Origin: an uncultured Candidatus Saccharibacteria bacterium
GTDB taxonomy: Bacteria; Patescibacteriota; Minisyncoccia; Phycocordibacterales; UBA2100
NCBI GenBank assembly: GCA_964362175.1
Contig: CAYIDD010000005.1
Span: forward strand, 44 to 64,043
Direction of reading: 5' to 3'
DNA length: 64,000 nucleotides
Shown one piece after another: positions 2,403 to 49,838 of the stretch. Under the pieces are notes generated by a model that was given only the letters and a program-made list of their open reading frames with translations, was not told the origin of the DNA and did not search any database. How positions within the stretch are numbered: position 1 is the stretch's first letter; the number at the start of each line of letters is the position of its first letter. The position numbers and the translations under genes were made by a program.

Positions 2403-2428
2403 GGGATCGTTCGGGGATATTTCTTTTT

Positions 2429-2444
2429 GTGACCCTACCGGGAA
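2429..2444. repeat. 16-bp direct repeat (gtgaccctaccgggaa), identical to the 3' end of tRNA-Glu at 7688-7703; putative distal att site of integrated element 1
   Basis: Exact 16-mer match. Lies 27 bp downstream of the folE stop, at the transition into lower-GC DNA. Confidence 0.5.
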
Positions 2445-2987
2445 GCTTCGCGCATCGGTCACGGATAATTTTGCTCCGCAAAATTTCTGCGACCCCGACT
2501 CAGCGACCCTGAGGGTACCCCGCCTCCGTCTTTCGATTCCCGATCGGGACCCTGTAACACCTAAAAACCCGACGACATGCGTCGGGCCTTAAGGTGTTAT
2601 GAGGCCAGTGTACTTGGAATGGAACACCTTGGAAACTATGGTTATTCGATGGAAAGAGGTGTTCGCAACGATGCCCACTGGTTATCTTACCCCCTCCCTT
2701 GAGGCAGCGGTATGAGGACTTTAGGCCCAGGACTCCCGTTTAATATCTACCTTATAGGTAATAGAACGCAGAGATTACCCTCGATCCCGTCGCTAGGTAA
2801 ACTCGCAAAACTCGACTGTCAGAAAATGAAAAAACCCTACTAGGGAAACACTCCAGAAACTCAAGAGGACCCCATGGCGATTTTAGTCATATATAGAGGC
2901 ATAATTTATGCCATATGCAAAAAATAATCCCGAATAAACGGAGTGTTTTCCGAGTAAAAAACCCAGAGTTTTCTTACACAAAAACCC

Positions 2988-3665
2988 CTAGTTTTGCGAG
3001 TCATTTAGGAGCGTCATTTTGGGCACCTCTATGCCATTCCAAGCGATCCTCAGCGGCACCTCGGTAACCTGCCCGCTTTCCTGATAGAGCTTCACCAGGA
3101 GCACCGACTCGCCCAGTGCTCCTCTAGAAAAAGCAGGTACATCATTCCCCGCAGCGACCGCCAGCAAGACGGAGCGATCCCCGACCATTTCTCGGTCAAG
3201 CATGTGGTTGAAAATATCGAGATAAACAGTTTGGTTGGGATAAATGTCTCGAACAGTCAGACCGTCTTTATTCAGTTGTCCGTGCGTCCAGATAAGAGGC
3301 ATCGGAAAGAAATCGGTGCGTATTTCTCCGCTGTCGGTAATTTTCTCGATGTACGCCTCCACAGCTTTTGCCTTGAACTTACCGCTGTTCTTGATGATGA
3401 CTCTCCCAACATCGAGAAGCGCCATCGGCTCAGAGTCGCCAATCGCTTCGGCATCTCCTTGATTAGTCACTATTGCACCTTCGACCACGATCTTGCTTTT
3501 TTGTGGGCGACGCCTCCACCATTCACTTAGCGGCGGAGACAAAATACCAAGCACGAGAGCAAGAACGATTGCCCAAAATTCTGGAGTGAGATAGAAAGGC
3601 GTCGAGAAATGGGCGGCTGTCTTTTGGAGTGCATCTATCGCTGACTCAAGTTGGTTTGGCTGCAT
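2988..3665 (-). CDS. hypothetical protein with N-terminal transmembrane anchor (element 1)
   Basis: 225 aa ORF. TM segment EFWAIVLALVLGILSPPL. No recognisable catalytic motifs. Confidence 0.5.
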   Translation of the reverse strand: MQPNQLESAIDALQKTAAHFSTPFYLTPEFWAIVLALVLGILSPPLSEWWRRRPQKSKIVVEGAIVTNQGDAEAIGDSEPMALLDVGRVIIKNSGKFKAKAVEAYIEKITDSGEIRTDFFPMPLIWTHGQLNKDGLTVRDIYPNQTVYLDIFNHMLDREMVGDRSVLLAVAAGNDVPAFSRGALGESVLLVKLYQESGQVTEVPLRIAWNGIEVPKMTLLNDSQN

Positions 3666-3693
3666 GCAGTAATTCTACCGCAGCTGAGCAGAT

Positions 3694-3861
3694 TAGCTTT
3701 TGTGGTTAGAAGCCAAGTACGAATAAACAATTGGGGCCAAGATGGGAGCCACAAGGCCCGCGAAGAAAGCTACGACTCTGTTAGCTCCTATTTTCTTTGC
3801 AGAGTACAGGCAGATCGGTATGGATATTCCCCACAGTATCAGCAAGACAATCGTTTCCATA
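3694..3861 (-). CDS. small membrane protein (56 aa), hand-translated, not in ORF track (element 1)
   Basis: ATG at complement 3859-3861 gives METIVLLILWGISIPICLYSAKKIGANRVVAFFAGLVAPILAPIVYSYLASNHKS*. Two hydrophobic helices. Start lies 3 nt after the stop of the upstream gene, suggesting an operon. Confidence 0.35.
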
Positions 3862-3863
3862 TT

Positions 3864-4760
3864 TTATTGAGCAGTCACTGTCACACTCTTACTAAATCCG
3901 TTAGCAGAAAAAGTAATCGTGTGTTGGCCACTGGTTTTGAACTCGTACAGAAATGGGTAATATGACACCGTTTCAGGAACACCGTCCTTATAAATCTTTG
4001 TTACAGCGCCTATGCCCGTCTGGTCGGTTCCCGTTCCCTTTATGAACCTTCGGCAGCTGAAGCAGTCAGGATTAGGTGGATCGGTTGCCTCAATCGTTAC
4101 GTCATACTTAATAACGGCATCCCCGTTATCATTACGTGCAATAAGACCAAGAACAATAGAATTACTATCATCGGGAGTGGCACTGCCTTGGGCTAGTGTT
4201 CCGTCGGGATTTATTTGGTAGTTGTTTGCCTTGTATTGCCGCCCCAGACCCTTACCAGGAGTCGGGCTGAATATTTCAATATTCGCTTTCGATATAGGTA
4301 CGGGCGCAGGCGTCGGCTGTGGTGTTGTGGGAACTGTGGGTGTTGGTTGCGGTGCTGGATTAAGCACGGGCGCGGGAGTCGGTGCAGGATTGGCAGGTTG
4401 AGTTACCACTGGCGGAACTGTCGGCGGCGTAAGCTGTTCCTCCTTGACGGACTCCGCGAGATCCACCGAAAGTACGGCATTAGCTCGAGTGCGCGTCAGA
4501 GGTCCAAAGAAACCTGATACTGGAGTAATATTTTCTCGCGCTTGAAATACTTTTACCGCCTTCAGAGTGAGCGTATAAAAATTTCCTGTTATGGGTCCCG
4601 AATACACCCCTTGATCGGTTAGGAACTCTTGGAGCTCACGTACTTCATCGCCTTTGCTCCCGTACTTTAAATTAGTATCGAAAGAAGCAAAGACAAACTG
4701 CGGGACCAAAACCAGCACGATAGCGAGGAGTTTATAGATATTTTTCATAGCAACCAGCAT
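3864..4760 (-). CDS. secreted protein with peptidoglycan-binding-like domain and Pro/Thr-rich linker (element 1)
   Basis: 298 aa. Signal peptide MKNIYKLLAIVLVLVPQFVFA. YGSKGDEVRELQEFLTDQGVYSGPITGNFYTLTLKAVKVFQ resembles the PG_binding_1 fold. PAPTPAP linker, then a beta-rich C-terminal domain. Confidence 0.6.
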   Translation of the reverse strand: MLVAMKNIYKLLAIVLVLVPQFVFASFDTNLKYGSKGDEVRELQEFLTDQGVYSGPITGNFYTLTLKAVKVFQARENITPVSGFFGPLTRTRANAVLSVDLAESVKEEQLTPPTVPPVVTQPANPAPTPAPVLNPAPQPTPTVPTTPQPTPAPVPISKANIEIFSPTPGKGLGRQYKANNYQINPDGTLAQGSATPDDSNSIVLGLIARNDNGDAVIKYDVTIEATDPPNPDCFSCRRFIKGTGTDQTGIGAVTKIYKDGVPETVSYYPFLYEFKTSGQHTITFSANGFSKSVTVTAQ

Positions 4761-4778
4761 GAGCTTGTAATGCTGGCG

Positions 4779-4943
4779 CTAAACACTAAGCCCCGCGCCA
4801 GCTAGGCCTTGCGGCCCCACACCCGTTTCCAGGTATGGCCCATCGCTGAGTTGCTGAACACGGGGTTCAGTATCAGCGATGGGACTTGTCGACCTTGCCA
4901 CAGCGAAGCTGCGGGTTAGGCCCTTTTATTGGGTATGTGTAAC
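4779..4943. repeat. structured repeat element, copy A (homolog at 38208-38397)
   Basis: About 70% identical to copy B. Contains a perfect 11-bp stem (cccatcgctga 4850-4860 / tcagcgatggg 4884-4894). The sequence of this stem differs entirely from the 10-bp stem at the same position in copy B. Inner ctgaac/gttcag stem. Upstream ccccgcg is complementary to the loop. Confidence 0.6.
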
Positions 4944-4994
4944 TCGATGCTAACATAGCGAGCCGCGGGTATAAAGGATAAAATCAGCTCACGT

Positions 4995-5687
4995 ATGATC
5001 GACCAGCTACTAGCACAAAGAGCCGTTTTAGAGGCCCTTGAGGCCAAAATCACGGCCTTGGGCGGCGCTGACAGGCATGTTGGCGATACTACGCTCGAAC
5101 TGTACTTTTGGGACGATTTGGCGGAAAAACATCAAAAACTTTTTAGATCAGCCACACTCGAGGACATCGCCTCGGCAATTACTATCGTTGAGAAAGAGTC
5201 AGCGGGGCGCTTTAAACTTGTATCTATTAAGCCATCTACCGCCACTCGCGACGTATTGAGAGTCGGTATAATGCAAGAAAGTGGCAGACCTATTTTGGAC
5301 GTCTCGAATTTATATTGGGAAGTCCGATACACAGAAAAACTACCCGCGGGAGAAGCTCCCAGTGGTTCGCAAATCTTTTGGCTTACACCTAGGGAGCTAC
5401 ACTCGTTAATTTCAAATGAAAGGCGATCATTCGCGTTTCGGTCAGGCGGTGTTCAATTCCGATTATTGCAGTGGTTTTCCGAACACAAGGATTTAACTAA
5501 AAGCAAAGAGCTAGCGGAGGAGCTCAAGACCACAACACGAACAATTGCCACAGAGATCGGCAAGCTGAAACGTAAAGCTGACGAGGCATTTGGCCTCGAT
5601 GAGGATAATTTCGTCCAAAGCAGTTATGGCGAAGGTTACGGGCCTGGTATCGGAATAAAAATCAAATTGGAAAGAGGTACGTCGTAG
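4995..5687 (+). CDS. hypothetical protein, possible HTH DNA-binding regulator (element 1)
   Basis: 230 aa. C-terminal region SKELAEELKTTTRTIATEIGKLKRK looks helix-turn-helix-like. Upstream of the recombinase, divergent from the secreted-protein operon. Confidence 0.45.
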   Translation: MIDQLLAQRAVLEALEAKITALGGADRHVGDTTLELYFWDDLAEKHQKLFRSATLEDIASAITIVEKESAGRFKLVSIKPSTATRDVLRVGIMQESGRPILDVSNLYWEVRYTEKLPAGEAPSGSQIFWLTPRELHSLISNERRSFAFRSGGVQFRLLQWFSEHKDLTKSKELAEELKTTTRTIATEIGKLKRKADEAFGLDEDNFVQSSYGEGYGPGIGIKIKLERGTS

Positions 5688-5796
5688 CTACCGTTGATAA
5701 GACCATAGAGCGCGACTGAATTATTGGGCTCTTTTGAGGGCTTATCGTACATGCGCTGTATGTACGCTGTAGCACCCCTTTCGGCAGAATTATGAG

Positions 5797-5988
5797 GTGG
5801 AACAGAGCACCGATGACAAGCTGGCCGAGAGCGCAAGCTCAGAACTTTCTTTTGATGCCTTCAAAAAAGCGCTCGGGTCCGCTGCTCTAAAATACTCGGA
5901 TACGGAAATTGAGCGCATGCGGGCCGTCTGCGATAAGTTTGCGGATGCCTTCTTTGACGGTTGGCTTAAGCGACGAAACGAGCAATAA
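5797..5988 (+). CDS. small acidic hypothetical protein (63 aa) immediately upstream of recombinase 1
   Basis: ORF MEQSTDDKLAESASSEL...; helical and acidic. Position is consistent with a recombination accessory or directionality factor, but this is speculative. Confidence 0.3.
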   Translation: MEQSTDDKLAESASSELSFDAFKKALGSAALKYSDTEIERMRAVCDKFADAFFDGWLKRRNEQ

Positions 5989-6022
5989 TGGGCAGGAAGG
6001 GCTCGACGATTATTACAAAAAC

Positions 6023-7726
6023 ATGGAAAAAAGCACCGAGGGAGAGTATTGCATAATTCACTGTCGAGTGAGTTCAACCAAACAATCTCAGGAGGGTGAG
6101 AGCTTGGATGTGCAAGCGGGCATCTGCCGCGCCATTGCCGTTCAGAATAAATGGCCACTCGCTCATGAGCCGTGGGAAGAGAGCTTCTCAGGGCGTAAAA
6201 GTACTCGGCCAATCTTTGAAGAAGTGTTGGCATTTCTGGATGCACATCCAGGTAAAGTACGCCGCTACATTTTTCGCTCGATTGATCGCTTTACACGCGG
6301 CGGCTCATTCTCATACGAAACGATGAAGCGCGAGCTTACAAAGCGCGGGGTAGCGATGGTGGATAGCTATGGAGTAATTCAAGCTTCAAAAAACACTCTT
6401 GAGGATTTGGGGATTGAGTATGACTGGAGCAGGTACTCACCGAGTGAAATGACAGAGTCGCTTCTCGCGACGAATGCTAAACAGGAGGTTACTGGCATCC
6501 TTACCAGGATGATCGGGCAGTCAATCCGATTAACCAGGCAAGGGTATCGAGCGCGTCGAAGTACAGACGGGTTTAAGAATGAGCGGGTGTTCGTCGAGGG
6601 GAAAAAGAAGGTCATACAGGTTCCCGATAAGGAGCGGGCCCGCTTTTTTATTGCGATGTTTGAATTGCGAGCGCTGGGCCAACTTACAGACCCTGAGATA
6701 GTCGAGAGAGTGAATGCGATGGGATACCGTTCTCCGTATCAAAATAAGTACAATCACGAAAAGACCAAGATCGTCGGGCGGAGAGGCGGAGTTCCGCTGA
6801 CTGTAAAGCAACTCCAGCGCATCATGCGGAATACAATCTATGCTGGAGTCGCATGCGAAAAATGGACAAACTACAAACCAATCCATCAACAGTACGACGG
6901 TCTTGTTACGGTCGAGGTTTTCAATCGAGCCAATAGAGGAGAGTTCGCCATTATGACGGATGAGAGCGCAGAGCTCACAGTCGTTCGCGGCAAATCAAAG
7001 ACGGGCACGGAACGAGTAAGAAATAACCCGCTCTACCCCTTCAAGTTCATTCTGTGTCCTTTGTGCGAGAAACCCAAAACCATGCTTGGCAGCGCACCAC
7101 GCGGCAAGCTGGGTAAAACACATCCCACTTACCACTGCGCTCGTACACACAAGTATTTCGGTATTCCTAAAAAGGACTTTGAGGAGAGTGTGGCGAAGTA
7201 CATCAAGAGTTTGAAGTTCCAACCCGATTTGCTTAATGGCTTGGAGGCAACGTTCCTTAACAAGTATCGTAAACGTGAGAAAGAAATTGTCAGAGCATCA
7301 GGCCAAATACACTCGCACATAGGCGAGCTCGAGGCGCGTCAGGCCTCAAAACTTGAGGCGTTTGAAGCAACAAAGAGTCCCGTGCTCCGAGGAAAGCTGG
7401 AAAGAGAAATAGAAGATCTTGAGGTCCAGATCAAGCAGGCGGGTAAACAACGCCTGAAGATACAGATCACGCGAAATGATATTAAGGCCTTTATGCGAGA
7501 TGCGAAAGCGATAATGGAACACCCCGCTGAAATCCTCCTAAACCCAAAGGATATAAAGGTCCAACAGGAATTATTCGGGTTAGTTTTTGAGAAAATGCCG
7601 ACCTACTCGGAAATTGTTAATGGAACACCTAAATTGTCCTACGCCTTCGCGCTTTCTTCGACATTTACACCAGACAAAAACCAATTGGTGACCCTACCGG
7701 GAATCGAACCCGGATTAACGGCTTGA
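6023..7726 (+). CDS. large serine recombinase (resolvase N-terminal domain + recombinase domain + zinc ribbon + coiled coil)
   Basis: Start at MEKSTEGEYCIIHCRVSSTKQ, where the catalytic Ser lies in the RVSS context. Zinc ribbon CPLC...HCA. The last 38 nt read antisense through tRNA-Glu (tail VTLPGIEPGLTA). Confidence 0.85.
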   Translation: MEKSTEGEYCIIHCRVSSTKQSQEGESLDVQAGICRAIAVQNKWPLAHEPWEESFSGRKSTRPIFEEVLAFLDAHPGKVRRYIFRSIDRFTRGGSFSYETMKRELTKRGVAMVDSYGVIQASKNTLEDLGIEYDWSRYSPSEMTESLLATNAKQEVTGILTRMIGQSIRLTRQGYRARRSTDGFKNERVFVEGKKKVIQVPDKERARFFIAMFELRALGQLTDPEIVERVNAMGYRSPYQNKYNHEKTKIVGRRGGVPLTVKQLQRIMRNTIYAGVACEKWTNYKPIHQQYDGLVTVEVFNRANRGEFAIMTDESAELTVVRGKSKTGTERVRNNPLYPFKFILCPLCEKPKTMLGSAPRGKLGKTHPTYHCARTHKYFGIPKKDFEESVAKYIKSLKFQPDLLNGLEATFLNKYRKREKEIVRASGQIHSHIGELEARQASKLEAFEATKSPVLRGKLEREIEDLEVQIKQAGKQRLKIQITRNDIKAFMRDAKAIMEHPAEILLNPKDIKVQQELFGLVFEKMPTYSEIVNGTPKLSYAFALSSTFTPDKNQLVTLPGIEPGLTA

Positions 7727-7762
7727 AAAGCCGGCGTCCTAACCATTAGACGATAGGGCCAC
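7689..7762 (-). tRNA. tRNA-Glu (anticodon TTC)
   Basis: Hand-folded. Acceptor gtggccc/gggtcac. Anticodon loop ttTTCaa. T-arm ccggg-ttcgatt-cccgg. One c-t mismatch in the anticodon stem. Confidence 0.65.
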
Positions 7763-7823
7763 AAACAGCGCCATTTTAGCGCATTTTCTGTCCTATACAA
7801 AATGTGATACTGTTGTCGGGTTT

Positions 7824-7908
7824 GGAGGCGTCGGATAGTGGTTTATTCCAGCGGTTTCGAAAACCGCCATGCCGAAAGGCATCGTGAGTTCGAATCTCAC
7901 CGCCTCCG
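7824..7908 (+). tRNA. tRNA-Ser (anticodon CGA), class II with long variable arm
   Basis: Acceptor ggaggcg/cgcctcc. Anticodon stem gcggt/accgc with loop ttCGAaa. Variable arm catgccgaaaggcatcg. T-arm gtgag-ttcgaat-ctcac. Confidence 0.8.
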
Positions 7909-7911
7909 CAT

Positions 7912-32663: not shown

Positions 32664-32671
32664 TTTTTGTG

Positions 32672-32753
32672 TGGGCAGGGCGAGACTCGAACTCGCACCC
32701 CTTGCGGGACTAGGTCCTAAGCCTAGCGCGGCTACCAATTACGCCACCTGCCC
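32672..32753 (-). tRNA. tRNA-Leu (anticodon TAG), class II
   Basis: Acceptor gggcagg/cctgccc. Anticodon stem ctagg/cctag with loop ctTAGga. Long variable arm. T-arm gcgag-ttcgagt-ctcgc. Confidence 0.75.
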
Positions 32754-33750: not shown

Positions 33751-33963
33751 TGGTGTCGGGTATCGTATTCACGACGGACCTACTTTCGACACTTTCCGAG
33801 CGTGGGGCTTATCTTCGAGCTCAGTAAACAATTCGAGCTTGGAAACTATGATTTAGTCCGCCTAACTATAGACCATTGGAACGCGCTCATCCAAGAAATG
33901 GAACAATGGCGAGGCATTACTAACGGGACAGATTTTGCCTTATCTTCCGAATCTCGCGTTTAA
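33751..33963 (+). pseudogene. start-less fragment homologous to the 3' end of large serine recombinase 2 (C-terminal tail variant)
   Basis: Frame open from the stop at 33748-50, with no start codon. Translation ...VSYSRRTYFRHFPSVGLIFELSKQFELGNYDLVRLTIDHWNALIQEMEQWRGITNGTDFALSSESRV*. Recombinase 2 has ...IAYSRGMGFGIARMGLIFELSKQFELGNYALVRPVGFEPTTVRLRGDCSTN*. Confidence 0.45.
33804..33862. repeat. 59-bp direct repeat (55/59 identical to 40959-41017), left boundary of integrated element 2
   Basis: ggggcttatCttcgagctcagtaaacaattcgagcttggaaaCtatgAtttAgtccgcc versus attR ggggcttatAttcgagctcagtaaacaattcgagcttggaaaTtatgCtttGgtccgcc. 32-bp identical core. The last ~9 nt correspond to the tRNA-Lys 3' end. 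Confidence 0.6.
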
Positions 33964-36448
33964 ACGACTCAGGCAGTTCTATAACTGATAGGTCTACAGT
34001 TGAGAGCCATTGAGTCGCTTGCTCCTCGTTAAGAGAAGGATTGCCAACCATCTTAGACAGTTCTGTGGCTACATGTCTGCTGAAGCCCATATTGATAAAT
34101 GAGACTTGCGTCATTTCTGATACTCCGAACTCAACCCACGTTCTAATATCTGGTATTTGTGCTAACAGTTCAGTTCTACCTGTTTGCTCGAAGAAATATC
34201 GGAGGGTATCTAAATAACACGTGATGTATTTCGCGAATCCAAAACGAATATCGTCTTCTATATTACGCATGGTATCTCGGATAACTACAGGAAGACGAGG
34301 GCTTCTGCCATGCTCCTGTAAATACTTGAAGTAATCCACGATTATCCTTGGCAAGGGGTAGCCGCGCATCCAAACAACCGCTAGCAACGCCTCTCGATAT
34401 GAGCTTATACTTTTTGTGTTTGGAGGTGCGAGATGTGTATTAACTCGACTGACAATTCGGTTGTAATCGCTCACTGCCGTTTGAGCGGCGACAGAAGGCG
34501 GCGGCAACAATTCTTCTACGTTCTCGTGTCCTTGGAAGTAATCATAAAGTCGTTTTACAGCAAGAGGACTAATGCCTGGATTTCGTTGAAAGATTTCCCG
34601 TGGCAACTGGACGTTTTCCCTGATTTTCCCTAACAGACTGATAAGTTCGTCCGAGAATATGCTGCTGTAATCGCCATCTAAGTATTTAAGAAAAAAGTAG
34701 CTCAACGCGTACTCCATATTCGCATCTCGAATATTGGCATCTTCGGCATGCTCGGCGACAAATTCAAGGAATGATGACCCCTCTCCAGTGATTTCAACAA
34801 GTGATTTCTTTATCTCATAACGACGTTCGCCCCAGAGAGGCTTATGCGTCCATTCTTCAGGTTCTATACAGAAAATATTTCCTTGAAAATCTTTGGAGAG
34901 TCTGCCTGCTCGTCCCGCCAAGTTCCAAAAATCCGCTTCTGACATCGGATTGCCACGACCACGAGATGGATTGGTAATGAAAATCGCTTTTGCCGACAGA
35001 TTCACTCCCTCTAGTAAAGTTGATGTGCAGACTAAATATTTAATAGCTCCCTCTCGGAACAATCTTTCAATTTCACGTCTAACCAAAAGCGGCATATTTC
35101 CGTAATGAAAAGCGACACCATAGGGCAATACTTGCGGTAGTGCATAGTGCGGATGAATAAGTCTTTTTGAGAGGTCTATCAACTCATCGAATGACGACTC
35201 ATCCTTTTCAACACCCATTTGTCTCAATTCATCTGCAATGCTTTGTGCGATTCTCTCAGCACTAGCTGCTCCAGATGCATATACCAAATTTCCACCGTCC
35301 TTACTCAGTAAGATTGGTAGCTTGCTACATTTCTTAGCAATTGTACCAAGAGTTTGTTCAAGTACGATTTTTCCTAAAGGAATAGATTGGGTCTTTAAGC
35401 AAAGCGTAATGTCCCATTCTTTGGGTTTACGAGGTACTTTAGAGAGCCAAATGAGGTTTTGGTTTACCGCCACATAATCCGTTAGAATGCTTACGCCCGT
35501 ATCTGAGTTCGATATTCCTAAAAGTATCTCAGGATTTCGGGAGAATGCGCTACAGAAGAGCACTCGCGAGGACGGATTAATACGCTGAACCTGCTCCACT
35601 TTCTCCTGCAGTAAAATACCACGTTGACCATCTCCTATCTTTTGTGCCTCATCAACAATTAGCAGGTCGACGGAATAGTCTGGATTATCCGTGAGAAACC
35701 AATGCAGTCTCTCCTGCGTGAAGACAAAGAGGTGATTTGAGTTCTTGTATTGGACTGGGGGCAATTTCGGGACTGAGCTTATGTAGACATTCTTTTCTAG
35801 ACCATATTCTGTGAGACTTTCATTGAAGCGGTCTTCCACTTCGTTAATAAGAGCACGAGTTGGGACGATATATACGATATGTGATGTTCTATCTGATTCT
35901 GACAAGGCTTTTGCGACAATGAGACTAAGCACGAACGACTTTCCAGCCGATGTCGGCGCGGAAGCACTTACTGTATTCTGCTCTCGTGCGGCAATATAAA
36001 GTTGTCTCTGAAATTTATTCAAATACCTAGTGTCGTTAACAATCTCAACTGTATGCAGTTGGTCGCGCCACATTTTCTCGACGAGAAGAGGACGCGGAAT
36101 GTCCTCCTCATAATTTTCGGGAATGTATTCTTTTTCTATAGCAAGATTAATCGCGGGCGCATTTGTCAGTTTCCCAAAAATAATCGCTGCTGCAACGTGA
36201 TATGACGGGTCAACCGCAGTCGTGAGACAGTATTGTGCGATGCGTAATGCCGCATCCTGACACTCCGCATCGTTTGCTTGCGCTAAAATGCTTCCGCAGA
36301 GAAGCATGTAGTTCCAGTCAATGTTCGGCTGCTGGTGGTCGTCAGAAAATCTTGTTGGCAAACTACCGAGAACGGAGGCATGGAGTATACTGCTAAATTC
36401 GTTTCTGAATTCTTGCAGTCCAAGTATTTTGCGTGCCAATTTGTCCAT
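33920..36448 (-). CDS. superfamily 2 DExH-box helicase (Ski2-like; HamB-like candidate)
   Basis: 842 aa. Motif I APTSAGKS, Ia IVPTRAL, II LLIVDEAQ, VI NLAGRAGR. Characteristic YGVAFHYGNMP...LVCTSTLLEGVNLSA RecA2 region. Confidence 0.8.
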   Translation of the reverse strand: MDKLARKILGLQEFRNEFSSILHASVLGSLPTRFSDDHQQPNIDWNYMLLCGSILAQANDAECQDAALRIAQYCLTTAVDPSYHVAAAIIFGKLTNAPAINLAIEKEYIPENYEEDIPRPLLVEKMWRDQLHTVEIVNDTRYLNKFQRQLYIAAREQNTVSASAPTSAGKSFVLSLIVAKALSESDRTSHIVYIVPTRALINEVEDRFNESLTEYGLEKNVYISSVPKLPPVQYKNSNHLFVFTQERLHWFLTDNPDYSVDLLIVDEAQKIGDGQRGILLQEKVEQVQRINPSSRVLFCSAFSRNPEILLGISNSDTGVSILTDYVAVNQNLIWLSKVPRKPKEWDITLCLKTQSIPLGKIVLEQTLGTIAKKCSKLPILLSKDGGNLVYASGAASAERIAQSIADELRQMGVEKDESSFDELIDLSKRLIHPHYALPQVLPYGVAFHYGNMPLLVRREIERLFREGAIKYLVCTSTLLEGVNLSAKAIFITNPSRGRGNPMSEADFWNLAGRAGRLSKDFQGNIFCIEPEEWTHKPLWGERRYEIKKSLVEITGEGSSFLEFVAEHAEDANIRDANMEYALSYFFLKYLDGDYSSIFSDELISLLGKIRENVQLPREIFQRNPGISPLAVKRLYDYFQGHENVEELLPPPSVAAQTAVSDYNRIVSRVNTHLAPPNTKSISSYREALLAVVWMRGYPLPRIIVDYFKYLQEHGRSPRLPVVIRDTMRNIEDDIRFGFAKYITCYLDTLRYFFEQTGRTELLAQIPDIRTWVEFGVSEMTQVSFINMGFSRHVATELSKMVGNPSLNEEQATQWLSTVDLSVIELPESFKREIRKIRQNLSR

Positions 36449-36457
36449 AAGGCATAC

Positions 36458-37423
36458 TCAACGCTCTAAGGCGCGAGTTAAGGCTTCGCGAAATTTTGCT
36501 ACCGAAGGCAGAGGAAGGATAAATAAGTGTATAACTATGGTCTCAACTTTTTGACTCTTTATTTCGGCATGGATTTTTTCAATCCATACGCTTAGGCTTT
36601 CGACTATGGCCTTTTTAACAGCTTCTACGTTGCCCGTATTTTGGACGGATGGGTAATGTTCGAAATCAAAACCAACGAGCCCAATTCCACGATAATTCAC
36701 TCGATTCGCTAAAGGTGAATCTTTTTTAAGATAACGTATCAGTGCCGACTCCAAATTCTCATCAGCAATATTTTCTGCGAGGTGGTCATGTGCCAACTGC
36801 AAATCTCTTTCTCGGCGTTCTGCGCCACCATCTACAAGAAGATAGGCGGATAAATCTTTAATGCACTCTTTAATGGCTGTTGCGGGATTTTGCTGGAGTT
36901 TTGACTCACACCAATACAGACATAAAATTGGTTCTTTACCCTCGTCATTCTCAATGGACAAGTGAATACCGTCAGAGCCGTGCACGGGCATTTCTGAGTT
37001 TGTCTTGAGAGGCATTTTGCACAGCAGTTGAGGGTACTTGAGGAATTCCTGAGCCATAAGATACAGGAGCAATTCACCACCCTCGCCAGATATACCCGTG
37101 GACTTAAATAACCCCCGTGCTGTCTTTTGTAATGCTGCAACTTTTCGGGTGGTGTTGTGCTTTGTATCGTAAGCTTTTGCTTCTGCGATTTTTGAGCGAG
37201 GAATTGCAAAATCAGCAGCGTTTGTAGCTAGGAAATCTGCCAAATCGTCAATCGGGGGCATGCCGTTCCCGTCCAATTCCAAAACGTAGCAGTGCGATGT
37301 TGCCCTTGTCGCCCCGACAACAACATTTACTTCTATTTCGGAGAAATATCGAGATAATTCAGCCTCACTGGTACTAAGTAAGCCACCCACTTCTCCTTTG
37401 AGGTCGTTGGATGACTTATTCAT
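36458..37423 (-). CDS. hypothetical protein with PD-(D/E)xK-like motif (HamA/DUF1837-like candidate)
   Basis: 321 aa, 9 bp upstream of the helicase. ...VHGSDGIHLSIENDEGKEPILCLYWCESKL... fits D...ExK nuclease spacing. GELLLYLMAQEFL segment. Size and gene order match Hachiman hamA-hamB. Confidence 0.4.
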   Translation of the reverse strand: MNKSSNDLKGEVGGLLSTSEAELSRYFSEIEVNVVVGATRATSHCYVLELDGNGMPPIDDLADFLATNAADFAIPRSKIAEAKAYDTKHNTTRKVAALQKTARGLFKSTGISGEGGELLLYLMAQEFLKYPQLLCKMPLKTNSEMPVHGSDGIHLSIENDEGKEPILCLYWCESKLQQNPATAIKECIKDLSAYLLVDGGAERRERDLQLAHDHLAENIADENLESALIRYLKKDSPLANRVNYRGIGLVGFDFEHYPSVQNTGNVEAVKKAIVESLSVWIEKIHAEIKSQKVETIVIHLFILPLPSVAKFREALTRALER

Positions 37424-37477
37424 GAATAAAGCCTACTCCAAACCACGAATATAAACAAATGGCAACAAAGTCGGCTC

Positions 37478-37648
37478 TCAATCAAATTTCTTTGAGAAAG
37501 TGGCGACGTTTTGTTTCTTTCTGTGAAAATAAACTTCTAAGGCTAACTCGGCCATGTCGTAAAGTGCCTTCCTGAGCTCATCAATTTCTTGGTCAGAGAG
37601 TTTGTTGCTATCGGGTATTAACTCGCGGCATTTTTCTAGAGAAAGCAT
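37478..37648 (-). CDS. small hypothetical helical protein (56 aa)
   Basis: ORF 37478-37732. Start placed at MLSLEKCRELIP to avoid overlap with the upstream gene. Confidence 0.3.
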   Translation of the reverse strand: MLSLEKCRELIPDSNKLSDQEIDELRKALYDMAELALEVYFHRKKQNVATFSKKFD

Positions 37649-37650
37649 AC

Positions 37651-37944
37651 CTATACTGTGAAGAAGACAGAGGCAGAGCCTAAAACAATCAAGATATTCG
37701 CCACCGCGTATATCGTAATTACATGCCACCAATTGTCGCCTGACTTAAGGGATTGGTACGAGGCAATAATTCCGGTAATAGCTGAAACAAGAGCCGTCAG
37801 AATCATCGCGTAGTACGAAATGCCAGCCACGACGATTTTCAGAGCGTCCTTAAGGTACGGCCATTCGTTTACAGACGAGAGAATGGACACGAATAAAATA
37901 CAGAGAGCCAAAGAGAACAAGCTTATTTTTAGGTATTTGTTCAT
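37651..37944 (-). CDS. small membrane protein (3 TM, 97 aa)
   Basis: MNKYLKISLFSLALCILFVSILS... has three hydrophobic helices. Holin-like size and topology, but this is speculative. Confidence 0.45.
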   Translation of the reverse strand: MNKYLKISLFSLALCILFVSILSSVNEWPYLKDALKIVVAGISYYAMILTALVSAITGIIASYQSLKSGDNWWHVITIYAVANILIVLGSASVFFTV

Positions 37945-37974
37945 AAGTCAACGACTAATTAAGGGGCGAGTAAT

Positions 37975-38190
37975 CTAAATTCCCTGAGCGTCGAGAAAGT
38001 CAGGCTTAGCATTATCTTGCTGCTGCTCGTAAGACTTTTCTTCCAAGTGAGCGCAAAGACTCGGATTGCGCGAACAATCTATCACAGTTGGTTTCGCTCT
38101 ATTGCTAGGGTCTTCCAGCAAACCCCCGAAGGTAAACCACAGAATAAAGAGCCCGAAGAGTACGCCTGCTATGAGTTTCAAATTCTCCAT
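37975..38190 (-). CDS. small secreted protein with signal peptide and two Cys
   Basis: 71 aa. MENLKLIAGVLFGLFILWFTFGG signal. Immediately downstream of structured repeat copy B. Confidence 0.45.
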   Translation of the reverse strand: MENLKLIAGVLFGLFILWFTFGGLLEDPSNRAKPTVIDCSRNPSLCAHLEEKSYEQQQDNAKPDFLDAQGI

Positions 38191-38207
38191 AAAAAAACGC
38201 TAGCTAA

Positions 38208-38397
38208 TAATGCTAGCGGGAGTGCAACACTAAACCCCGCGCCAGCTAAGCCTTGCGGCCCCACACCCCTTTCGGGATATGGCTCATGGAAGAGTCGCTG
38301 AACGCGGGGTTCAGTACCTTCCATGAGTCTTTTCGACCATGCCACCAGACGTTGGTGGGTTAGGTCGCGCCCTTACGGGCTGATATTGGGTGTGTAA
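38208..38397. repeat. structured repeat element, copy B (homolog of 4779-4943)
   Basis: Perfect 10-bp stem ctcatggaag (38283-38292) / cttccatgag (38318-38327) encloses ...gctgaacgcggggttcag.... Upstream aaccccgcg is complementary to cgcggggtt. Shares aacactaa(a/g)ccccgcgccagcta, gccttgcggccccacaccc and tattgggtRtgtgtaa blocks with copy A. Confidence 0.6.
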
Positions 38398-38595
38398 AAG
38401 CACTATATCATCACACGGAAAAACACACAGAAAACAGGTGCGTGCAAGGAGGTTTAGGATTATCCAAATGCTTGGATAGAGCCATATAAGGCGTCTGTAG
38501 GTCAAAAAAGGAGGTAGGAGGGGTACGGGGACCAAAACCCTGATTAAAACTACATACCACCGTCCCTCGACAAATTTTATATATATTTTTGTAGG

Positions 38596-38651
38596 TCTTA
38601 ACTTGAAGCCTTAACAGGATATTTAAACGCCATTAACTCAGGCTCTTAAAC
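38596..38651. promoter_or_regulatory. AT-rich region with iteron-like TTAAC-N9-TTAAC repeats upstream of the HTH/recombinase genes of element 2
   Basis: tcTTAACttgaagccTTAACa and atTTAACtcaggctcTTAAAc, about 14 bp apart. Further gcttgacttagagcc nearby. Confidence 0.3.
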
Positions 38652-38892
38652 AAAGCATTCTTTTTGTGCTATATCCTAAAATAGCTTGACTTAGAGCCAT
38701 ATTTTTGATAGGATTAGAGCATAAGATTATTAGCTAATAGGTTCATTTGAAATGGGATGATTTCTCTCGAAAAAACGCGAGAGCTCCTAAATGAAGCATC
38801 ATCTGTACAACTCCAAGATAAAGAAGTTGCGGCATTCCGCGATTCCTGCGCGGCATTAGCTCGTATTTTTGTGGACACGGTTTTAGAAGAAC

Positions 38893-39291
38893 TTGGGAGC
38901 CAACCCAAGGCTAATTAAACACGCAAATATGAGCAAACCAATTACAGGTCTATTCGTTCCAAAAGCAATACTGTTAGATGGTAATTTAGGTTCATCACAA
39001 AAACTGCTTTTTTCGGAGATTCATCACCTTTCTGGAAGTGAAAGAGGATGTTACGCCGGAAATAATCATCTCGGAGAAATGATTGGATTATCTAGCGCAC
39101 AAGTAAGCAGAATTATTTCTGGGTTACGGCGGTCAGGCTATATCCGATGGGAACTCGCTGAAGAAGAAGTGACGCGACGAAGAATGTACTCCACTCTCGA
39201 AAGAGATGACGAGGACGCAGAAGTTAATGATGTAGCAAGGGAATACGCGGATAGGGAGAGGGACTTCGACTTTTCCGATGAGGGGGTATAA
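38893..39291 (+). CDS. small HTH (winged-helix-like) DNA-binding protein with acidic tail (element 2)
   Basis: 132 aa. ...HLGEMIGLSSAQVSRIISGLRRSGYIRWE... looks like helix-turn-helix. Acidic C-terminus DDEDAEVND. Confidence 0.5.
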   Translation: MGANPRLIKHANMSKPITGLFVPKAILLDGNLGSSQKLLFSEIHHLSGSERGCYAGNNHLGEMIGLSSAQVSRIISGLRRSGYIRWELAEEEVTRRRMYSTLERDDEDAEVNDVAREYADRERDFDFSDEGV

Positions 39292-39498
39292 GCAGGACCG
39301 CTCAACGAAGATAATAGTAGAGACAATAGTTAAATAATACTCTCACTACTCCCAGCTTCGCTGGGAACGAACGATAGTTCGTTAGTGGCACTACTAAATC
39401 TTTAGTCTTAACCAACTCGATATTATCTATCCCTGTACAGCTCTACAAACAATGGCCGCGGCTAGGATTATCCAGAAGTGTTATTCTTAAAGTACGTT

Positions 39499-41073
39499 AT
39501 GAAAGCAATCATCTACACTCGTGTCAGCAGCGATGAACAAATCAAAGGCACTTCTCTTGCAGACCAAGAGCGTCGGTGTACTGCCTACTGCGAGGAAAAC
39601 GGATACGAGGTACAGGCTGTGTTTCGCGAGGAAGGCGCGTCAGCAAAAACAGCAGACCGGAAGGAGCTCTTTAGCGCAATGGAGTTCTGTCGTACACACA
39701 AGGGCGAGATAGATTTCTTTGTGGTCTTCAAGCTCGACCGCTTTGCACGGAATGTTTCCGACCACTTCGGCGTCAGGAAAAGTCTCAAAGAGTACGGAGT
39801 TGAGTTGAGGTCTGTGTCGGAGCAATTAGGCGATGAACCGTCTGAGAAGTTTATGGAAGCTGTTATCGCGGCGGCCTCTGAGTACGATAATGGCGTTCGT
39901 ACACAACGAGCCACTAATGGCATGGTGGCAAAGATACGCGAGGGTATATGGCCATGGAAAGCCCCCTTGGGCTATGTTCCCAATCCGAAGCGGGTATTAG
40001 GAGGAAAGAAAAATATGCCTGATGTTCCGGACCCTGCTACTTTCTCGATACTACAAACAGCTTTCAGAGAGTACGCACAGGGTGAACATACTCCAATAAG
40101 TCTTGGACGCAGACTTGATGCGCTTGGATTAGCTGCGATTAGAGGCAAGCAAGCGTCATCTCAGTTCATTCAGCAGTTATTAGTGGAGCGACGCATAAAG
40201 TTTTATGCGGGGAAGCTGATTACAGACCTTAATGGAGAAAATGAGGTGCAGGGCTTACACCAGCCGATGATAACTGAGACCGAATGTGCGAGCATGATTG
40301 GATATATCCATGGCAAGAAAAAGCCAGTTCAACGCCATGCATTAGTTAACCCTAATTTCCCTCTAAAGGGCGGTACAGTCCTTTGTGGCGCATGTACGAA
40401 GCCTCTGACGGGTAGTACAACGCGAGGTCGAAGTGGTTTGCACCCTTACTACCACTGCTACAACAAGCAGTGTGAGATGTACGGAAAGATTACTCAGAAA
40501 GATGTCCTAGAAAACGATTTCCTGACCTTACTAAATAAAGTTGCTCCTTCTGGAAAGTTTATTGCCTATTTCAAGAAAGCCGTGATTGATGAGTGGGAGA
40601 ATCGAGTCGGACAGATAAAGGATGTACACAAGGAATACGAGGAGAGCCGTCGTAAACTTAACGAAAGTCTAGACCGCATAAAACAGCTTCTTGAAGACGG
40701 CACTTACAGCCGCGCAGAGTATCTAGAGCGTAAGCAGAAGATTGAAAACGGATTGATGACAACGGGAATATCTGAGAACGAGTCGCACATTGAACAAATG
40801 GACATTGAGGCATTGCTTACTAAAGCAACAGAGTTCCTTACCTCGTTGGGCGAGCACTGGAAGAAAATGCCACCGACTGTACGGCCAAGATTCCAAAAGC
40901 TGGTCTATCCAGACGGAATTGCTTACTCTCGCGGTATGGGATTTGGAATCGCACGAATGGGGCTTATATTCGAGCTCAGTAAACAATTCGAGCTTGGAAA
41001 TTATGCTTTGGTCCGCCCAGTAGGATTCGAACCTACGACCGTTCGCTTAAGAGGCGACTGCTCTACCAACTGA
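39499..41073 (+). CDS. large serine recombinase (element 2)
   Basis: Start MKAIIYTRVSSDEQ, with the catalytic Ser in the resolvase domain. Zinc ribbon CGACTKPLTG...HCYNKQC. Coiled coil. The last ~65 nt read antisense through tRNA-Lys (tail VGFEPTTVRLRGDCSTN). Confidence 0.85.
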   Translation: MKAIIYTRVSSDEQIKGTSLADQERRCTAYCEENGYEVQAVFREEGASAKTADRKELFSAMEFCRTHKGEIDFFVVFKLDRFARNVSDHFGVRKSLKEYGVELRSVSEQLGDEPSEKFMEAVIAAASEYDNGVRTQRATNGMVAKIREGIWPWKAPLGYVPNPKRVLGGKKNMPDVPDPATFSILQTAFREYAQGEHTPISLGRRLDALGLAAIRGKQASSQFIQQLLVERRIKFYAGKLITDLNGENEVQGLHQPMITETECASMIGYIHGKKKPVQRHALVNPNFPLKGGTVLCGACTKPLTGSTTRGRSGLHPYYHCYNKQCEMYGKITQKDVLENDFLTLLNKVAPSGKFIAYFKKAVIDEWENRVGQIKDVHKEYEESRRKLNESLDRIKQLLEDGTYSRAEYLERKQKIENGLMTTGISENESHIEQMDIEALLTKATEFLTSLGEHWKKMPPTVRPRFQKLVYPDGIAYSRGMGFGIARMGLIFELSKQFELGNYALVRPVGFEPTTVRLRGDCSTN

Positions 41074-41084
41074 GCTATGGGCGG
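41009..41084 (-). tRNA. tRNA-Lys (anticodon CTT), CCA encoded
   Basis: 76 nt. D-arm gctc-agttggtag-agc. Anticodon loop ctCTTaa. T-arm gtagg-ttcgaat-cctac. 3' ACCA present. Confidence 0.8.
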
Positions 41085-41122
41085 TTACGTGGGATTCTAC
41101 AGGAAATAATGCTTTTTTGAAG

Positions 41123-41140
41123 TGCCGGGGGTGGGACTCG
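41123..41140. repeat. 18-nt duplicate of the 3' end of tRNA-Leu(TAA) (identical to 41289-41306)
   Basis: tgccgggggtgggactcg, exact. Separated from the tRNA by a 148-bp insert with hairpins aattcaatcg...cgattgaatt and gcatcgtgc...gcacgatgc. Confidence 0.5.
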
Positions 41141-41288
41141 GTCACAAATAATTCAATCGCCGCCGCGATTGAATTTCCGCGACCCCGGCTCGCGGTCGCG
41201 CGTACTCGCGCGACATCGCTCCGCCTTTCGAGTCCCACACGCATCGTGCGTAGGCACGATGCTCCCCGTCAATCTCACTTCGCTCGCT

Positions 41289-41371
41289 TGCCGGGGGTGG
41301 GACTCGAACCCACAAACCTGTTAAGGTCAAAGATTTTAAGTCTTCTGCGTAAACCATTCCGCCACCCCGGC
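41289..41371 (-). tRNA. tRNA-Leu (anticodon TAA), class II
   Basis: Acceptor gccgggg/ccccggc. Anticodon stem gaaga/tcttt with loop ctTAAaa. Long variable arm. T-arm gtggg-ttcgagt-cccac. Confidence 0.75.
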
Positions 41372-41415
41372 AGGAAAGCTAATCTTAGCTCAATTTATGT
41401 TAGAGTACACGCGTT

Positions 41416-41487
41416 GGCCACGTGGCGAAGGGGTAACGCGGAAGTCTGCAAAACTTTTATGCGCGGGTTCGAGTCCCGCCGTGGCCT
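41416..41487 (+). tRNA. tRNA-Cys (anticodon GCA)
   Basis: Acceptor ggccacg/cgtggcc. Anticodon stem gaagt/acttt with loop ctGCAaa. T-arm gcggg-ttcgagt-cccgc. Confidence 0.75.
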
Positions 41488-41491
41488 CAAT

Positions 41492-48265: not shown

Positions 48266-48275
48266 TATCCCCACT

Positions 48276-48358
48276 GCGTCGGTGGCAGAGTGGTCAAATG
48301 CACGTGGCTGTAAACCACGCGACTTCGGTCTCCGCAGGTTCGAATCCTGCCCGGCGCA
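48276..48358 (+). tRNA. tRNA-Tyr (anticodon GTA), class II
   Basis: Acceptor gcgtcgg/ccggcgc (one G-U). Anticodon stem cgtgg/ccacg with loop ctGTAaa. Long variable arm. T-arm gcagg-ttcgaat-cctgc. Confidence 0.75.
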
Positions 48359-48388
48359 CCCATGTTTTCCCATGATAAACTGAGCGGC

Positions 48389-48793
48389 ATGACCCAAAGA
48401 CGAGTGATGGTAGGTTTCATACTATTCCTCACTATCGCTACATCCGCCCCCTCGCTTGCACTCGCCGCCAATGCGCTTCCGAGCCAGATCGTTCCGGAAG
48501 AGTGCAACCAGAAGGGCGGCTGTCAGTCGATCTGCGATCTAGCACAAGTCGCCCACAACATCCTCAATACCGGCATTTATATCGCTGTGTTTCTCTCCGC
48601 CATCCTTTTTGCGTGGGCGGGGTGGCTGTATCTGACGGATGTTGCCAACGCAGGGCAGCATTCAAAGGCAGTAGAGGTATTTCAGTATGTCGCTACAGGC
48701 CTTGTCATCATCCTTATAGGATGGCTAGTTGTGGACGTACTCATACGAACGTTGGCAGGGGACAACTTTAGTTCATGGAATAAGATTTGTTAA
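48389..48793 (+). CDS. small secreted two-TM protein, distant sixth member of the 30.5-32.7 kb paralog family
   Basis: Start MTQRRVMVGFILFLTIATSAPSLALA (signal). Two TM helices. GLVIILIGWLVVDVLIRTLAG is comparable to the family C-terminal helix. Confidence 0.45.
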   Translation: MTQRRVMVGFILFLTIATSAPSLALAANALPSQIVPEECNQKGGCQSICDLAQVAHNILNTGIYIAVFLSAILFAWAGWLYLTDVANAGQHSKAVEVFQYVATGLVIILIGWLVVDVLIRTLAGDNFSSWNKIC

Positions 48794-48907
48794 TCCTCTC
48801 CTAGAGTCCACACCCCGCAGCTTGCTGCGTGGAGGATGTCATTTTTTCTTTTATGGTGGTATTGTTCCCCAGCCTGTACTCACAGGCTGCTCTTACAGGA
48901 GAAGTTC

Positions 48908-49145
48908 AATGTCCCTCACTTTTAGGGTAAAGATCGTTGACGGAGATGGAAACCCTGTATCTGGCGAAACGGTTCTCGTCGTTGAGTCGGCGATAACGGG
49001 GCCGTCTCAGAGTCAATGTACGGATAGCGACGGGTGGGCTGAATTTGAGTTTGAACGGAACAGGCTCTATGCCTACGTCCATGTCGCTGGCGAAGAACAT
49101 CACGTTATCGTTGATGACGGTGATGAACTTTCCTTCACAATCTAG
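48908..49145 (+). CDS. small hypothetical protein (79 aa), beta-rich
   Basis: MSLTFRVKIVDGDGNPVSGETVLVVES... resembles the carboxypeptidase-regulatory/Ig-like pattern. Confidence 0.3.
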
Positions 49146-49329
49146 TGAGCAGTATCGGCGGAATCTCCCGCCAAGCCGCGCCTGGAAGGCGCGGCTTCTT
49201 TTTCGACACCCAGTCATTTGGATATGAGATGCCATGGGAGTATTATTTCAAGACCGCTAGAGTGTCACCGAGAGAGTCGTTCAGTGCAAATAGTTGCAAA
49301 ATGGGGCCATTTCCCGTATAGTGCCGCGC

Positions 49330-49488
49330 ATGTCTCAGGATCAGCTATTCAAACTCGCGTGCTCGAAGTGCGCCCGTATCAACTATTGGTCACGCAAAAA
49401 TCGCAAGCTCGTAACGCGTAAGATCGAGCTCAAGAAGTATTGCAAATGGTGTAAAGCGCACACCAAGCACAAGGAAGCGAAGAAGTAG
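49330..49488 (+). CDS. rpmG: 50S ribosomal protein L33
   Basis: MSQDQLFKLACSKCARINYWSRKNRKLVTRKIELKKYCKWCKAHTKHKEAKK. CxxC...CxxC zinc ribbon typical of bL33. Confidence 0.7.
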   Translation: MSQDQLFKLACSKCARINYWSRKNRKLVTRKIELKKYCKWCKAHTKHKEAKK

Positions 49489-49621
49489 GAGTTTGGAGCC
49501 GGACAAATCCGGCTCTATACTTAGCGAGCGGGGGTACTCCTCGTTCAGGGTTCATTATATTCATATAGACCCTGCGTTCGGAGAAAGTGAGAATCAGCTA
49601 CTCTCACGTTGCTCCTCTCTT

Positions 49622-49836: not shown

Positions 49837-49838
49837 CC

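Follow-up and report, generated by a model that had tools for sequence, protein, structure and literature searches.

The C4 RNA of phages P1 and P7 and the CI RNA of the satellite P4 are cut from the leader of the operon that they repress. LOOT RNA (RF03000), the subject of this work, is a catalogued and functionally unexplained family, whose original description reportedly drew on environmental sequences only and regarded the motif as a probable small RNA (sRNA). We describe here two copies of LOOT RNA carried by a stretch of 64,000 nucleotides (nt) from an uncultured Candidatus Saccharibacteria bacterium (positions 44 to 64,043 of contig CAYIDD010000005.1, assembly GCA_964362175.1), which is referred to below as the window. 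Each copy lies on the minus strand of a mobile island, in the gap between divergent genes, and points into the cargo genes of that island.

The LOOT RNA motif stems from the screen of Weinberg et al. published in 2017 and is not discussed in the main text of that paper (PMC5737381). It is one of the metagenome-based families of the Weinberg collection (PMC7779021). Two covarying pairs were added to it in Rfam release 15 (PMC11701678), and its unusual cross-covariations were mentioned by Rivas et al. (PMC7657543). Our literature search found no paper connecting LOOT with Patescibacteria.

So far, LOOT has been an orphan, known from metagenome fragments, with no assigned host or gene association and with a provisional sRNA label. 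The window and 19 further copies provide it with a host clade (Patescibacteria/Paceibacterota), a defined mobile element, a position at the head of cargo operons and a covarying helix that the Rfam model does not contain. Globally, these data convert an unexplained motif into a testable regulatory hypothesis, namely that LOOT is a two-state, attenuator-like leader that acts in cis and gates the expression of the island cargo, a reading to which we give slightly better than even odds (about 0.55).

Two copies of LOOT RNA and their covarying helices

The whole window was scanned with the covariance models of Rfam 15 at their gathering thresholds (46.4 bits for RF03000). This yielded two LOOT and eight tRNA matches, and no other Rfam family, C4-type RNAs included, reached its gathering score in the window. 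Both LOOT matches are on the minus strand and extend over model positions 1-121 of 121, hence without truncation, with 77.4 bits (E = 7.8e-13) for copy A (4922..4804) and 78.2 bits (E = 4.9e-13) for copy B (38366..38248). A preliminary description of this DNA, made from the sequence alone, had noticed a two-copy element whose quoted conserved blocks are all present at the positions that it gave, but it had recognized no standard RNA family, a statement that the full-length match overturns.

The core of copy A comprises P1/P2, P3 with its inner hairpin, P4 and P5, and in both copies P4 and P5 are capped by GAAA and GCAA tetraloops, respectively. The GAAA loop of P4 is invariant in 18 sequences, and the other loops of the family are GNRA or UUCG. 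Copy B also carries an extra 5' hairpin with a GUAA loop, P0 (GCCC-GUAA-GGGC, 38367..38380, minus strand), between P1 and a conserved box described below; GNRA hairpins are found at the same place in four other copies (L147b, L170, L171 and L176; loci other than those of the window are designated by L and a number). The minimum-free-energy fold of the minus strand of copy A (-66 kcal/mol, z = -6.85) is the Rfam fold itself, and that of copy B (-61 kcal/mol, z = -6.29) reproduces the Rfam structure; the plus-strand folds of the two copies are weaker (z = -3.7 and -4.2). The family match, the stability of these folds and the covariation reported below all bear out the earlier suggestion of a structured RNA.

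The two copies form the sole long repeat of the window, an ungapped match between 4782-4901 and 38226-38345 with 83% identity, or 82% over about 250 columns when gaps are allowed. Their surroundings are much less alike, since the two recombinases encoded nearby are only 23% identical and the two neighbouring helix-turn-helix (HTH) proteins have no detectable similarity. The LOOT element is therefore conserved far beyond its surroundings. A recent duplication of the flanks, which the preliminary description had named among the observations that would undermine its proposal, is ruled out by the same comparison.

The long stem P3 encloses the central hairpin. In copy A, it spans 4839..4883 on the minus strand and is formed by cccatcgctga (4839-4849) and tcagcgatggg (4873-4883), and its counterpart in copy B pairs ctcatggaag (38283-38292) with cttccatgag (38318-38327). 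These are the perfect stems of 11 and 10 base pairs (bp) reported earlier, recovered here at 4839-4883 and 38283-38327, with the addition of an 11th pair, a G.U, when copy B is read on the minus strand. The idea that pairing in this stem is preserved while its sequence changes holds in more homologs, which had been proposed as a check: in a set of 14 sequences, 10 of the 11 outer pairs of P3 change on both sides and 100% of the positions are paired. More generally, 86% of the cells of the core helices are paired in these 14 sequences and two-sided changes are found in 30 of 41 pairs, with a covariation of 0.639 that none of 500 shuffles equals and that falls to at most 0.135 in slid controls. 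The P3 sequences of the two copies do not recur elsewhere above chance.

A long-range helix is absent from the Rfam model. Its analysis relies on a covariance model, R1, consisting of the LOOT core and 36 nt of 3' flank left unpaired, and on an alignment of 18 LOOT copies made with R1 (A5), which was not fitted to this helix. A tail of about 20 nt that follows P5, beyond the end of the Rfam model, is complementary to the central hairpin, with which it can form a 17-bp helix, X:X'. Segment X (columns 54-71 of A5) begins with the two final bases of the P3 5' strand and continues through the 5' strand and loop of the central hairpin, and segment X' (columns 137-153) is the tail directly after P5. 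In copy A, X (GAUACUGAACCCCGUGU, 4858..4874, minus strand) and X' (GCGCGGGGCUUAGUGUU, 4782..4798, minus strand) form a duplex of -30.5 kcal/mol (z = -5.9), and in copy B the corresponding segments (GGUACUGAACCCCGCGU, 38302..38318, and GCGCGGGGUUUAGUGUU, 38226..38242, both minus strand) form one of -34.0 kcal/mol. A pseudoknot between the loop of the central hairpin and a conserved ccccgcg motif had been put forward in the preliminary description. This pairing proves to be real and longer, 17 bp, and to covary across 18 sequences; as the transcribed strand is the minus one, the motif then called 'upstream' corresponds to the 3' tail.

In the 18 sequences, 92.9% of the X:X' helix is paired, and two-sided changes affect 10 of the 17 pairs (54 cells). 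The covariation of the helix, 0.464, compares with 0.192 in shuffles (0/500) and with values no higher than 0.084 in controls that shift the partner by 1-3 columns. For example, columns 67/141 are occupied by C-G in seven sequences, G-C in seven and A-U in four, and columns 70/138 by A-U in nine and G-C in eight. In a comparison that does not depend on any alignment, cognate X and X' pair with a mean energy of -31.9 kcal/mol versus -20.0 kcal/mol for permuted tails (0/50000), and the z-scores against shuffled tails range from -5 to -10. These results are not circular, because the loci were retrieved via the 5' part of LOOT or via a neighbouring protein. Furthermore, the duplex is stronger on the LOOT strand than on the opposite strand in 13 of 13 sequences, and U.G is the commonest pair at three positions of the helix. 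As these U.G pairs would be A.C mismatches on the other strand, a single-stranded DNA site is unlikely. Copies A and B share a single X/X' type, and their P2 and P3 helices differ. All this suggests that the Rfam model should be extended by about 50 nt at its 3' end.

Hosts, islands and recurrent genomic context

Species-representative genomes were searched with a DNA pattern derived from the 5' part of LOOT (P1/P2) only, and LOOT was found in metagenome-assembled genomes of Patescibacteria exclusively. These belong to Candidatus Adlerbacteria (L133, L136, L154 and L147, the last with two copies), to Candidatus Paceibacterota (L142 and L150) and to Minisyncoccia (L151). A metagenome scan added four loci (L155, L160, L161 and L166). 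In viral contigs, a loose 15-base pattern gave at least 120 matches, all of them noise. A pattern aimed at close relatives gave no matches, and none of the 11 viral matches to a tighter pattern was LOOT; LOOT islands were thus not found in IMG/VR by these patterns.

In five of these loci (L133, L142, L151, L154 and L155), a tRNA or transfer-messenger RNA (tmRNA) gene, a recombinase gene and a gene for a small regulator lie on one strand, and LOOT and the cargo genes on the other. In L133 (5223-5601) and L155 (1982-2411), the island abuts a tmRNA gene, at which the recombinase gene ends. An independent test of this context started from the HTH protein encoded next to copy A, a search for which gave 14 homologues. 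Among them, the loci of seven were inspected, and all seven carry LOOT in the same divergent position, with 82-106 bits for model R1; in six of the seven, the HTH gene is followed by a gene of the resolvase family. The association with serine-recombinase elements, which the preliminary description had advised checking, is thus found well beyond the window, the recombinase gene being divergent from LOOT. The cargo of the seven loci differs and includes genes for Trypsin_2, AAA_15, PG_binding_1 and cadherin-like proteins. The constancy of LOOT despite this variation indicates that it is part of the conserved core of the island and not of its cargo. The closest named homologue of the HTH protein encoded next to copy A, 63% identical, comes from Candidatus Pacebacteria. 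A contig from the 0.1-um fraction of Hainich groundwater also encodes the ClpB protein of the window, and from this homologue and this sample a Paceibacterota genome is the most likely source of the window. Across the loci, most of the proteins encoded divergently from LOOT have no detectable homology; only those of L150 and L151 are related, and there are weak hints of similarity between the L151 protein and those of window islands A and B.

The downstream genes are varied and include genes for defence functions. LOOT precedes a DNA methylase and a helicase gene in L161 and a T5orf172 gene in L147a, and other LOOT loci adjoin KAP-NTPase or TIR-like genes, i.e. defence-island settings. L147 carries two LOOT copies in the same orientation (230-351 and 1227-1344), about 1 kb apart, which belong to different X/X' types and have the T5orf172 gene between them. 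In L159, whose metagenome contig carries the island of L136, a group I intron (RF00028, 79 bits, 4004-4299) is found about 4 kb from LOOT. An apparent frameshift affects the PG_binding_1 cargo gene of L177 at the A8 run that directly follows its ATG (around 1278-1310); a slippery homopolymer or an error of assembly may explain it.

In the window, both LOOT copies lie in a divergent gap between the genes for an HTH protein and a recombinase on one side and a minus-strand operon starting with a gene for a signal-peptide or membrane protein on the other, as the preliminary description had proposed. Island A (2426..7703), of low G+C content, has at its ends a 19-nt direct repeat (2426-2444 and 7685-7703), which is a copy of the 3' end of a tRNA-Glu gene. 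Its first cargo open reading frame (ORF; 3864..4760, minus strand, with a start at 4760 or 4748) encodes a secreted protein with a PG_binding_1 domain. On the plus strand, divergent from LOOT, it encodes a winged-helix protein (HTH_11, 4995..5687) and a large serine recombinase (5909..7726), whose ORF runs into the tRNA-Glu gene (7686-7760, minus strand). The structural matches of an AlphaFold model of the winged-helix regulator (predicted local distance difference test score of 79) were limited to winged-helix DNA-binding domains of OmpR and BirA type, and its N-terminal part gave none that was informative.

Island B (33803..41017), also of low G+C content, lies by a tRNA-Lys gene and has at its ends a 60-nt direct repeat (33803-33862 and 40958-41017, 93% identical), which is unusually long for a serine-recombinase element. 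The island is 7.2 kb in size. On its minus strand, it encodes successively a 71-amino-acid membrane protein, the first ORF (37975..38190), a second membrane protein (37651-37944), the Hachiman protein HamA (36458-37423; PF08878, E = 4.7e-55) and a HamB-type helicase (33920-36448). On its plus strand, divergent from LOOT, it encodes an HTH protein (38893..39291) with a weak HTH_36 match, below the Pfam cut-off, and a large serine recombinase (39478..41073), whose ORF runs into the tRNA-Lys gene (41009-41084, minus strand). One copy of the 60-nt repeat lies inside the 3' end of this ORF. The C-termini of the two recombinases, GIEPGLTA and GFEPTTVRL, are translated tRNA sequence. This readthrough means that integration may have altered the C-terminus or that the 3' end of the gene may contain the att site.

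The window has nine tRNA genes in 64 kb (7686-7909, 32671-32753, 41009-41488 and 48275-50965), three of which are clustered at 41.0-41.5 kb, and two of the nine are the integration sites of islands A and B. Elsewhere, an 82-nt direct repeat (59357-59438 and 59495-59576, 71% identity, spacing of 138 nt) lies in or by the minus-strand ORF 59217-61400 and is probably a protein-level repeat.

The place of LOOT beside a recombinase gene in a mobile island, together with a structure that is more conserved than its sequence, could suggest a structured DNA site (single-strand origin, oriT or attC-like) or an RNA that guides the recombinase. We regard both as very improbable. The strand-specific U.G pairs and the GNRA and UUCG tetraloops speak against a DNA site, and hence also against the single-strand origin, oriT or pac site envisaged in the preliminary description. 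Furthermore, the islands end kilobases away from LOOT, at the direct repeats (2426/7703 and 33803/41017), and LOOT has no complementarity to either end of its own island (absolute z at most 1.5). X and X' are common to both copies though their islands lie at different tRNA genes, and the P3 sequences, as said above, are not recurrent. Among the ORFs of the islands, as scanned or as listed, we noticed neither a relaxase nor a replication gene; the Pfam scans covered ten selected ORFs, and the search was not exhaustive. What is new here is the presence of LOOT in named Patescibacteria genomes and its fixed place in tRNA/tmRNA islands, together with a winged-helix regulator and a serine recombinase.

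A candidate leader with competing folds

In every locus that could be read, the first ORF on the LOOT strand starts 149-204 nt from the LOOT start, and its product usually has an N-terminal hydrophobic segment. On the 5' side, copy A is immediately preceded by an A/T-rich box (GTTACACATACCCAATAAAAG, 4923..4943, minus strand), a candidate -10 region of a promoter, and copy B by a conserved box (TTTTACACACCCAATATCA, 38381..38399, minus strand) that is a candidate promoter region. A related box, ACAAyTGAATAAAA, is found directly 5' of P1 in most loci and reads CCCAATAAAA or CCCAATAT in the window. The insertion of a GNRA hairpin between this box and P1 in five loci is consistent with a box that is promoter DNA and with transcription starting just after it. 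Minus-strand transcription would thus start just downstream of the A/T-rich box, and LOOT would be the 5' leader of the cargo operon. In the islands of the HTH_11 type, namely that of copy A (4944-4965) and those of L170, L171, L173 and L176, a conserved CGCTATG-TA-CG(T) element is found ahead of the A/T-rich box, 20-35 nt from the LOOT start on its 5' side. In copy A, it contains the inverted repeat GCTA-aca-TAGC. This element could be a -35 region, or an operator bound by the divergent winged-helix protein.

The tail has a second partner. Its 5' part can also pair with a segment located about 10-15 nt further downstream, D1, and form a hairpin, P6. The tail:D1 duplex reaches -14 kcal/mol or lower in 15 of 17 loci, and cognate pairs average -17.2 kcal/mol versus -13.1 kcal/mol for permuted partners (0/50000). 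In copy A, P6 (4772..4802, minus strand) pairs GCUGGCGC of the tail with GCGCCAGC of D1. A CAUUAC motif is found just 3' of P6 in copy A (4765-4771), L160, L170 and L173, and copy B has CAUUAU.

Further downstream, a third pairing would compete with P6. In copy A, D1 (GCGCCAGCAU) could pair instead with AUGCUGG, and the resulting hairpin D1:D2 (CCAGCAU and AUGCUGG, 4754..4775, minus strand), as read from the sequence, would include the AUG at 4760, the first one in frame. D1 of copy B overlaps the 5' strand of a terminator-like hairpin, CGCUAGC-auuauua-GCUAGCG followed by U7 (38191..38218, minus strand, the part before U7 being 38198-38218), which lies directly before the AUG at 38190, and pairing of D1 with GCUGGCG of the tail, likewise read from the sequence, is possible at -20.5 kcal/mol. 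L147a, L133 and L154 have an analogous arrangement, with the last hairpin directly next to the start codon.

These alternatives are close in energy. In six of 12 full leaders, including that of copy B, the best nested fold has the X:X' helix in place of P3, and in four more it contains other pairs between the core and downstream sequences. Relative to the LOOT fold when it is enforced, these alternatives gain 1.3-7.2 kcal/mol. The lowest-energy structure of copy A and of L136 is the LOOT fold with P6. Such small gaps indicate two states of similar energy. They argue against a static reading, according to which LOOT would be a compact pseudoknotted RNA acting in cis, either as a put-like processive antiterminator or as a stabilizer of the 5' end of the mRNA. 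A promoter-proximal position at the head of long and variable cargo operons, the terminator directly after copy B and the combination of the invariant GAAA loop with a CCUAAC...(U/C)A(U/A)GG internal loop, which recalls a known receptor and suggests a fixed tertiary fold, would all suit such an RNA. However, a tail with two mutually exclusive, covarying partners would not, and sequences of the P3 strand repeated at start codons would not be expected of a pure antiterminator or stabilizer; we therefore hold this static RNA to be quite improbable.

Indeed, four sequences representing three independent loci (L160, L161, L174 and L175) carry exact copies, 9-12 nt long, of the P3 5' strand that end 2 nt before the AUG, which makes the start region complementary to the P3 3' strand (z = -6 to -11). 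Other loci, both window copies included, have partial and weaker copies. These copies of the LOOT strand at the start region also bear on the possibility that LOOT is an independent sRNA ending at P6 or at a terminator and acting in trans on unlinked mRNAs, its adjacency to the ORF being incidental. Such an sRNA would agree with the Rfam label 'Gene; sRNA', with the very stable multi-hairpin fold and with the canonical terminators that follow copy B and L147b. However, these are the only two U-tract terminators found between LOOT and the ORF in about 17 loci, the distance to the next ORF on the same strand varies within a narrow range, and the window contains no other convincing candidate target of X. 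We consider the trans-acting sRNA to be improbable, if less so than the static RNA.

In the two-state leader that we favour, the RNA would adopt one of two mutually exclusive folds. In the first, the compact LOOT core would retain X, and P6 would form between the tail and D1. In the second, X would pair with X', which would free D1 and, if P3 opens, the P3 3' strand as well; freed D1 or P3 3' strand would then enter a terminator or a hairpin that occludes the start codon. The choice of downstream hairpin, and with it the transcription and translation of the first cargo gene, would thus depend on the state of X. Candidate triggers are temperature, a small molecule, the winged-helix protein encoded nearby and the LOOT RNA of another copy. 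A metabolite riboswitch is unlikely, as the downstream genes share no function: they encode PG_binding_1 proteins, small membrane proteins with Hachiman, DNA methylase with helicase, T5orf172 or Trypsin_2.

Several points weigh against this two-state leader. Both the co-transcription of LOOT with the ORF and the switch itself are inferred, and a scan for sigma-70 promoters found no consensus match at either window copy. Only copies A and B, L147a, L133 and L154 show the D1:D2 step clearly, and the P3:start-region signal is not significant without the loci that carry exact repeats (p about 0.03-0.05). Unless P3 opens, the topology of a 17-bp helix that joins the tail to a closed hairpin loop is awkward. 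No ligand is suggested by the downstream genes, which have no function in common, and Rfam assigns RF03000 to the type 'Gene; sRNA'. Finally, the 21 LOOT copies examined are few and related, with about five types of X sequence.

These types lead to another explanation, in which LOOT would be processed from the leader as a stable sRNA, and X would act as an antisense seed on X' in nascent leaders, be they those of its own island or of a different one with the same X type, the X/X' types being immunity specificities. X:X' complementarity does covary in discrete types, and the location of X' in the 5' strand and loop of P6 and of X in the P3 loop or internal loop is a loop-loop antisense geometry. 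Furthermore, the two window copies share one type despite their different P2 and P3, the two copies of L147 are of different types, and the location at the start of a mobile-element operon is as in C4 and CI. However, intramolecular pairing explains the same data, X' lies 30-60 nt upstream of the AUG, seemingly off the ribosome-binding site, and the window contains neither further convincing X'-like sites nor, at gathering score, a C4-type family. The processed antisense RNA is thus unlikely, albeit worth keeping in mind. Of the sRNA, antisense RNA and leader that the preliminary description had listed as possible functions, we thus favour the leader, the two others being kept as lesser rivals.

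More broadly, we tentatively suggest, as something that may well prove wrong, that LOOT is the sensing and effector domain of an undescribed class of bistable leaders, perhaps with a type-specific self-targeting similar to that of C4 and CI, which gates the island cargo of Patescibacteria. If the switch is real, it would be among the first cis-regulatory RNA mechanisms described for bacteria of the candidate phyla radiation and would offer a handle on the expression of defence islands in these bacteria. If the bistable or C4-like reading is right, the cargo of these islands (defence systems and surface proteins) would be under an RNA-based on/off or immunity control in ultra-small bacteria.

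Comparison with known regulatory RNAs

Like C4 and CI, LOOT is located where the leader of a mobile-element operon is expected and has loops complementary to downstream sites of what would be the same transcript, and these complementarities covary as types. It differs from them by the lack of any sequence or model similarity, by a candidate target, X', that seems not to include the ribosome-binding site and by a larger size, with five to seven helices. In L160, L161, L174 and L175, the segment complementary to the start region is the P3 3' strand, not X.

The candidate leader also resembles attenuators and riboswitch expression platforms in its mutually exclusive pairings (X:X', X':D1, and D1:D2 or a terminator) and in the variable platform located by the start codon. 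Unlike them, it includes no leader peptide, and its downstream genes have no ligand-indicating function in common.

The 11-nt receptor of GAAA tetraloops has the sequence CCUAAG...UAUGG. In LOOT, the 5' side of the P1/P2 internal loop is CCUAAC or CCUAAA, and its 3' side is UAUGG in four sequences and CAUGG or CAAGG in most others. The closing G.U of the canonical receptor is replaced, so that a docking of the P4 loop is a candidate and a structural lead. By this analogy, the invariant GAAA loop and the receptor-like internal loop hint at a defined tertiary fold.

Lastly, the window copies and their relatives conform to LOOT as described in Rfam in the order of their hairpins, in the invariant GAAA loop and in the GNRA and UUCG loops, and no difference was found in the core. 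To that description, the present analysis adds the 17-bp X:X' helix, P6, named hosts and a fixed position as candidate leader of island cargo.

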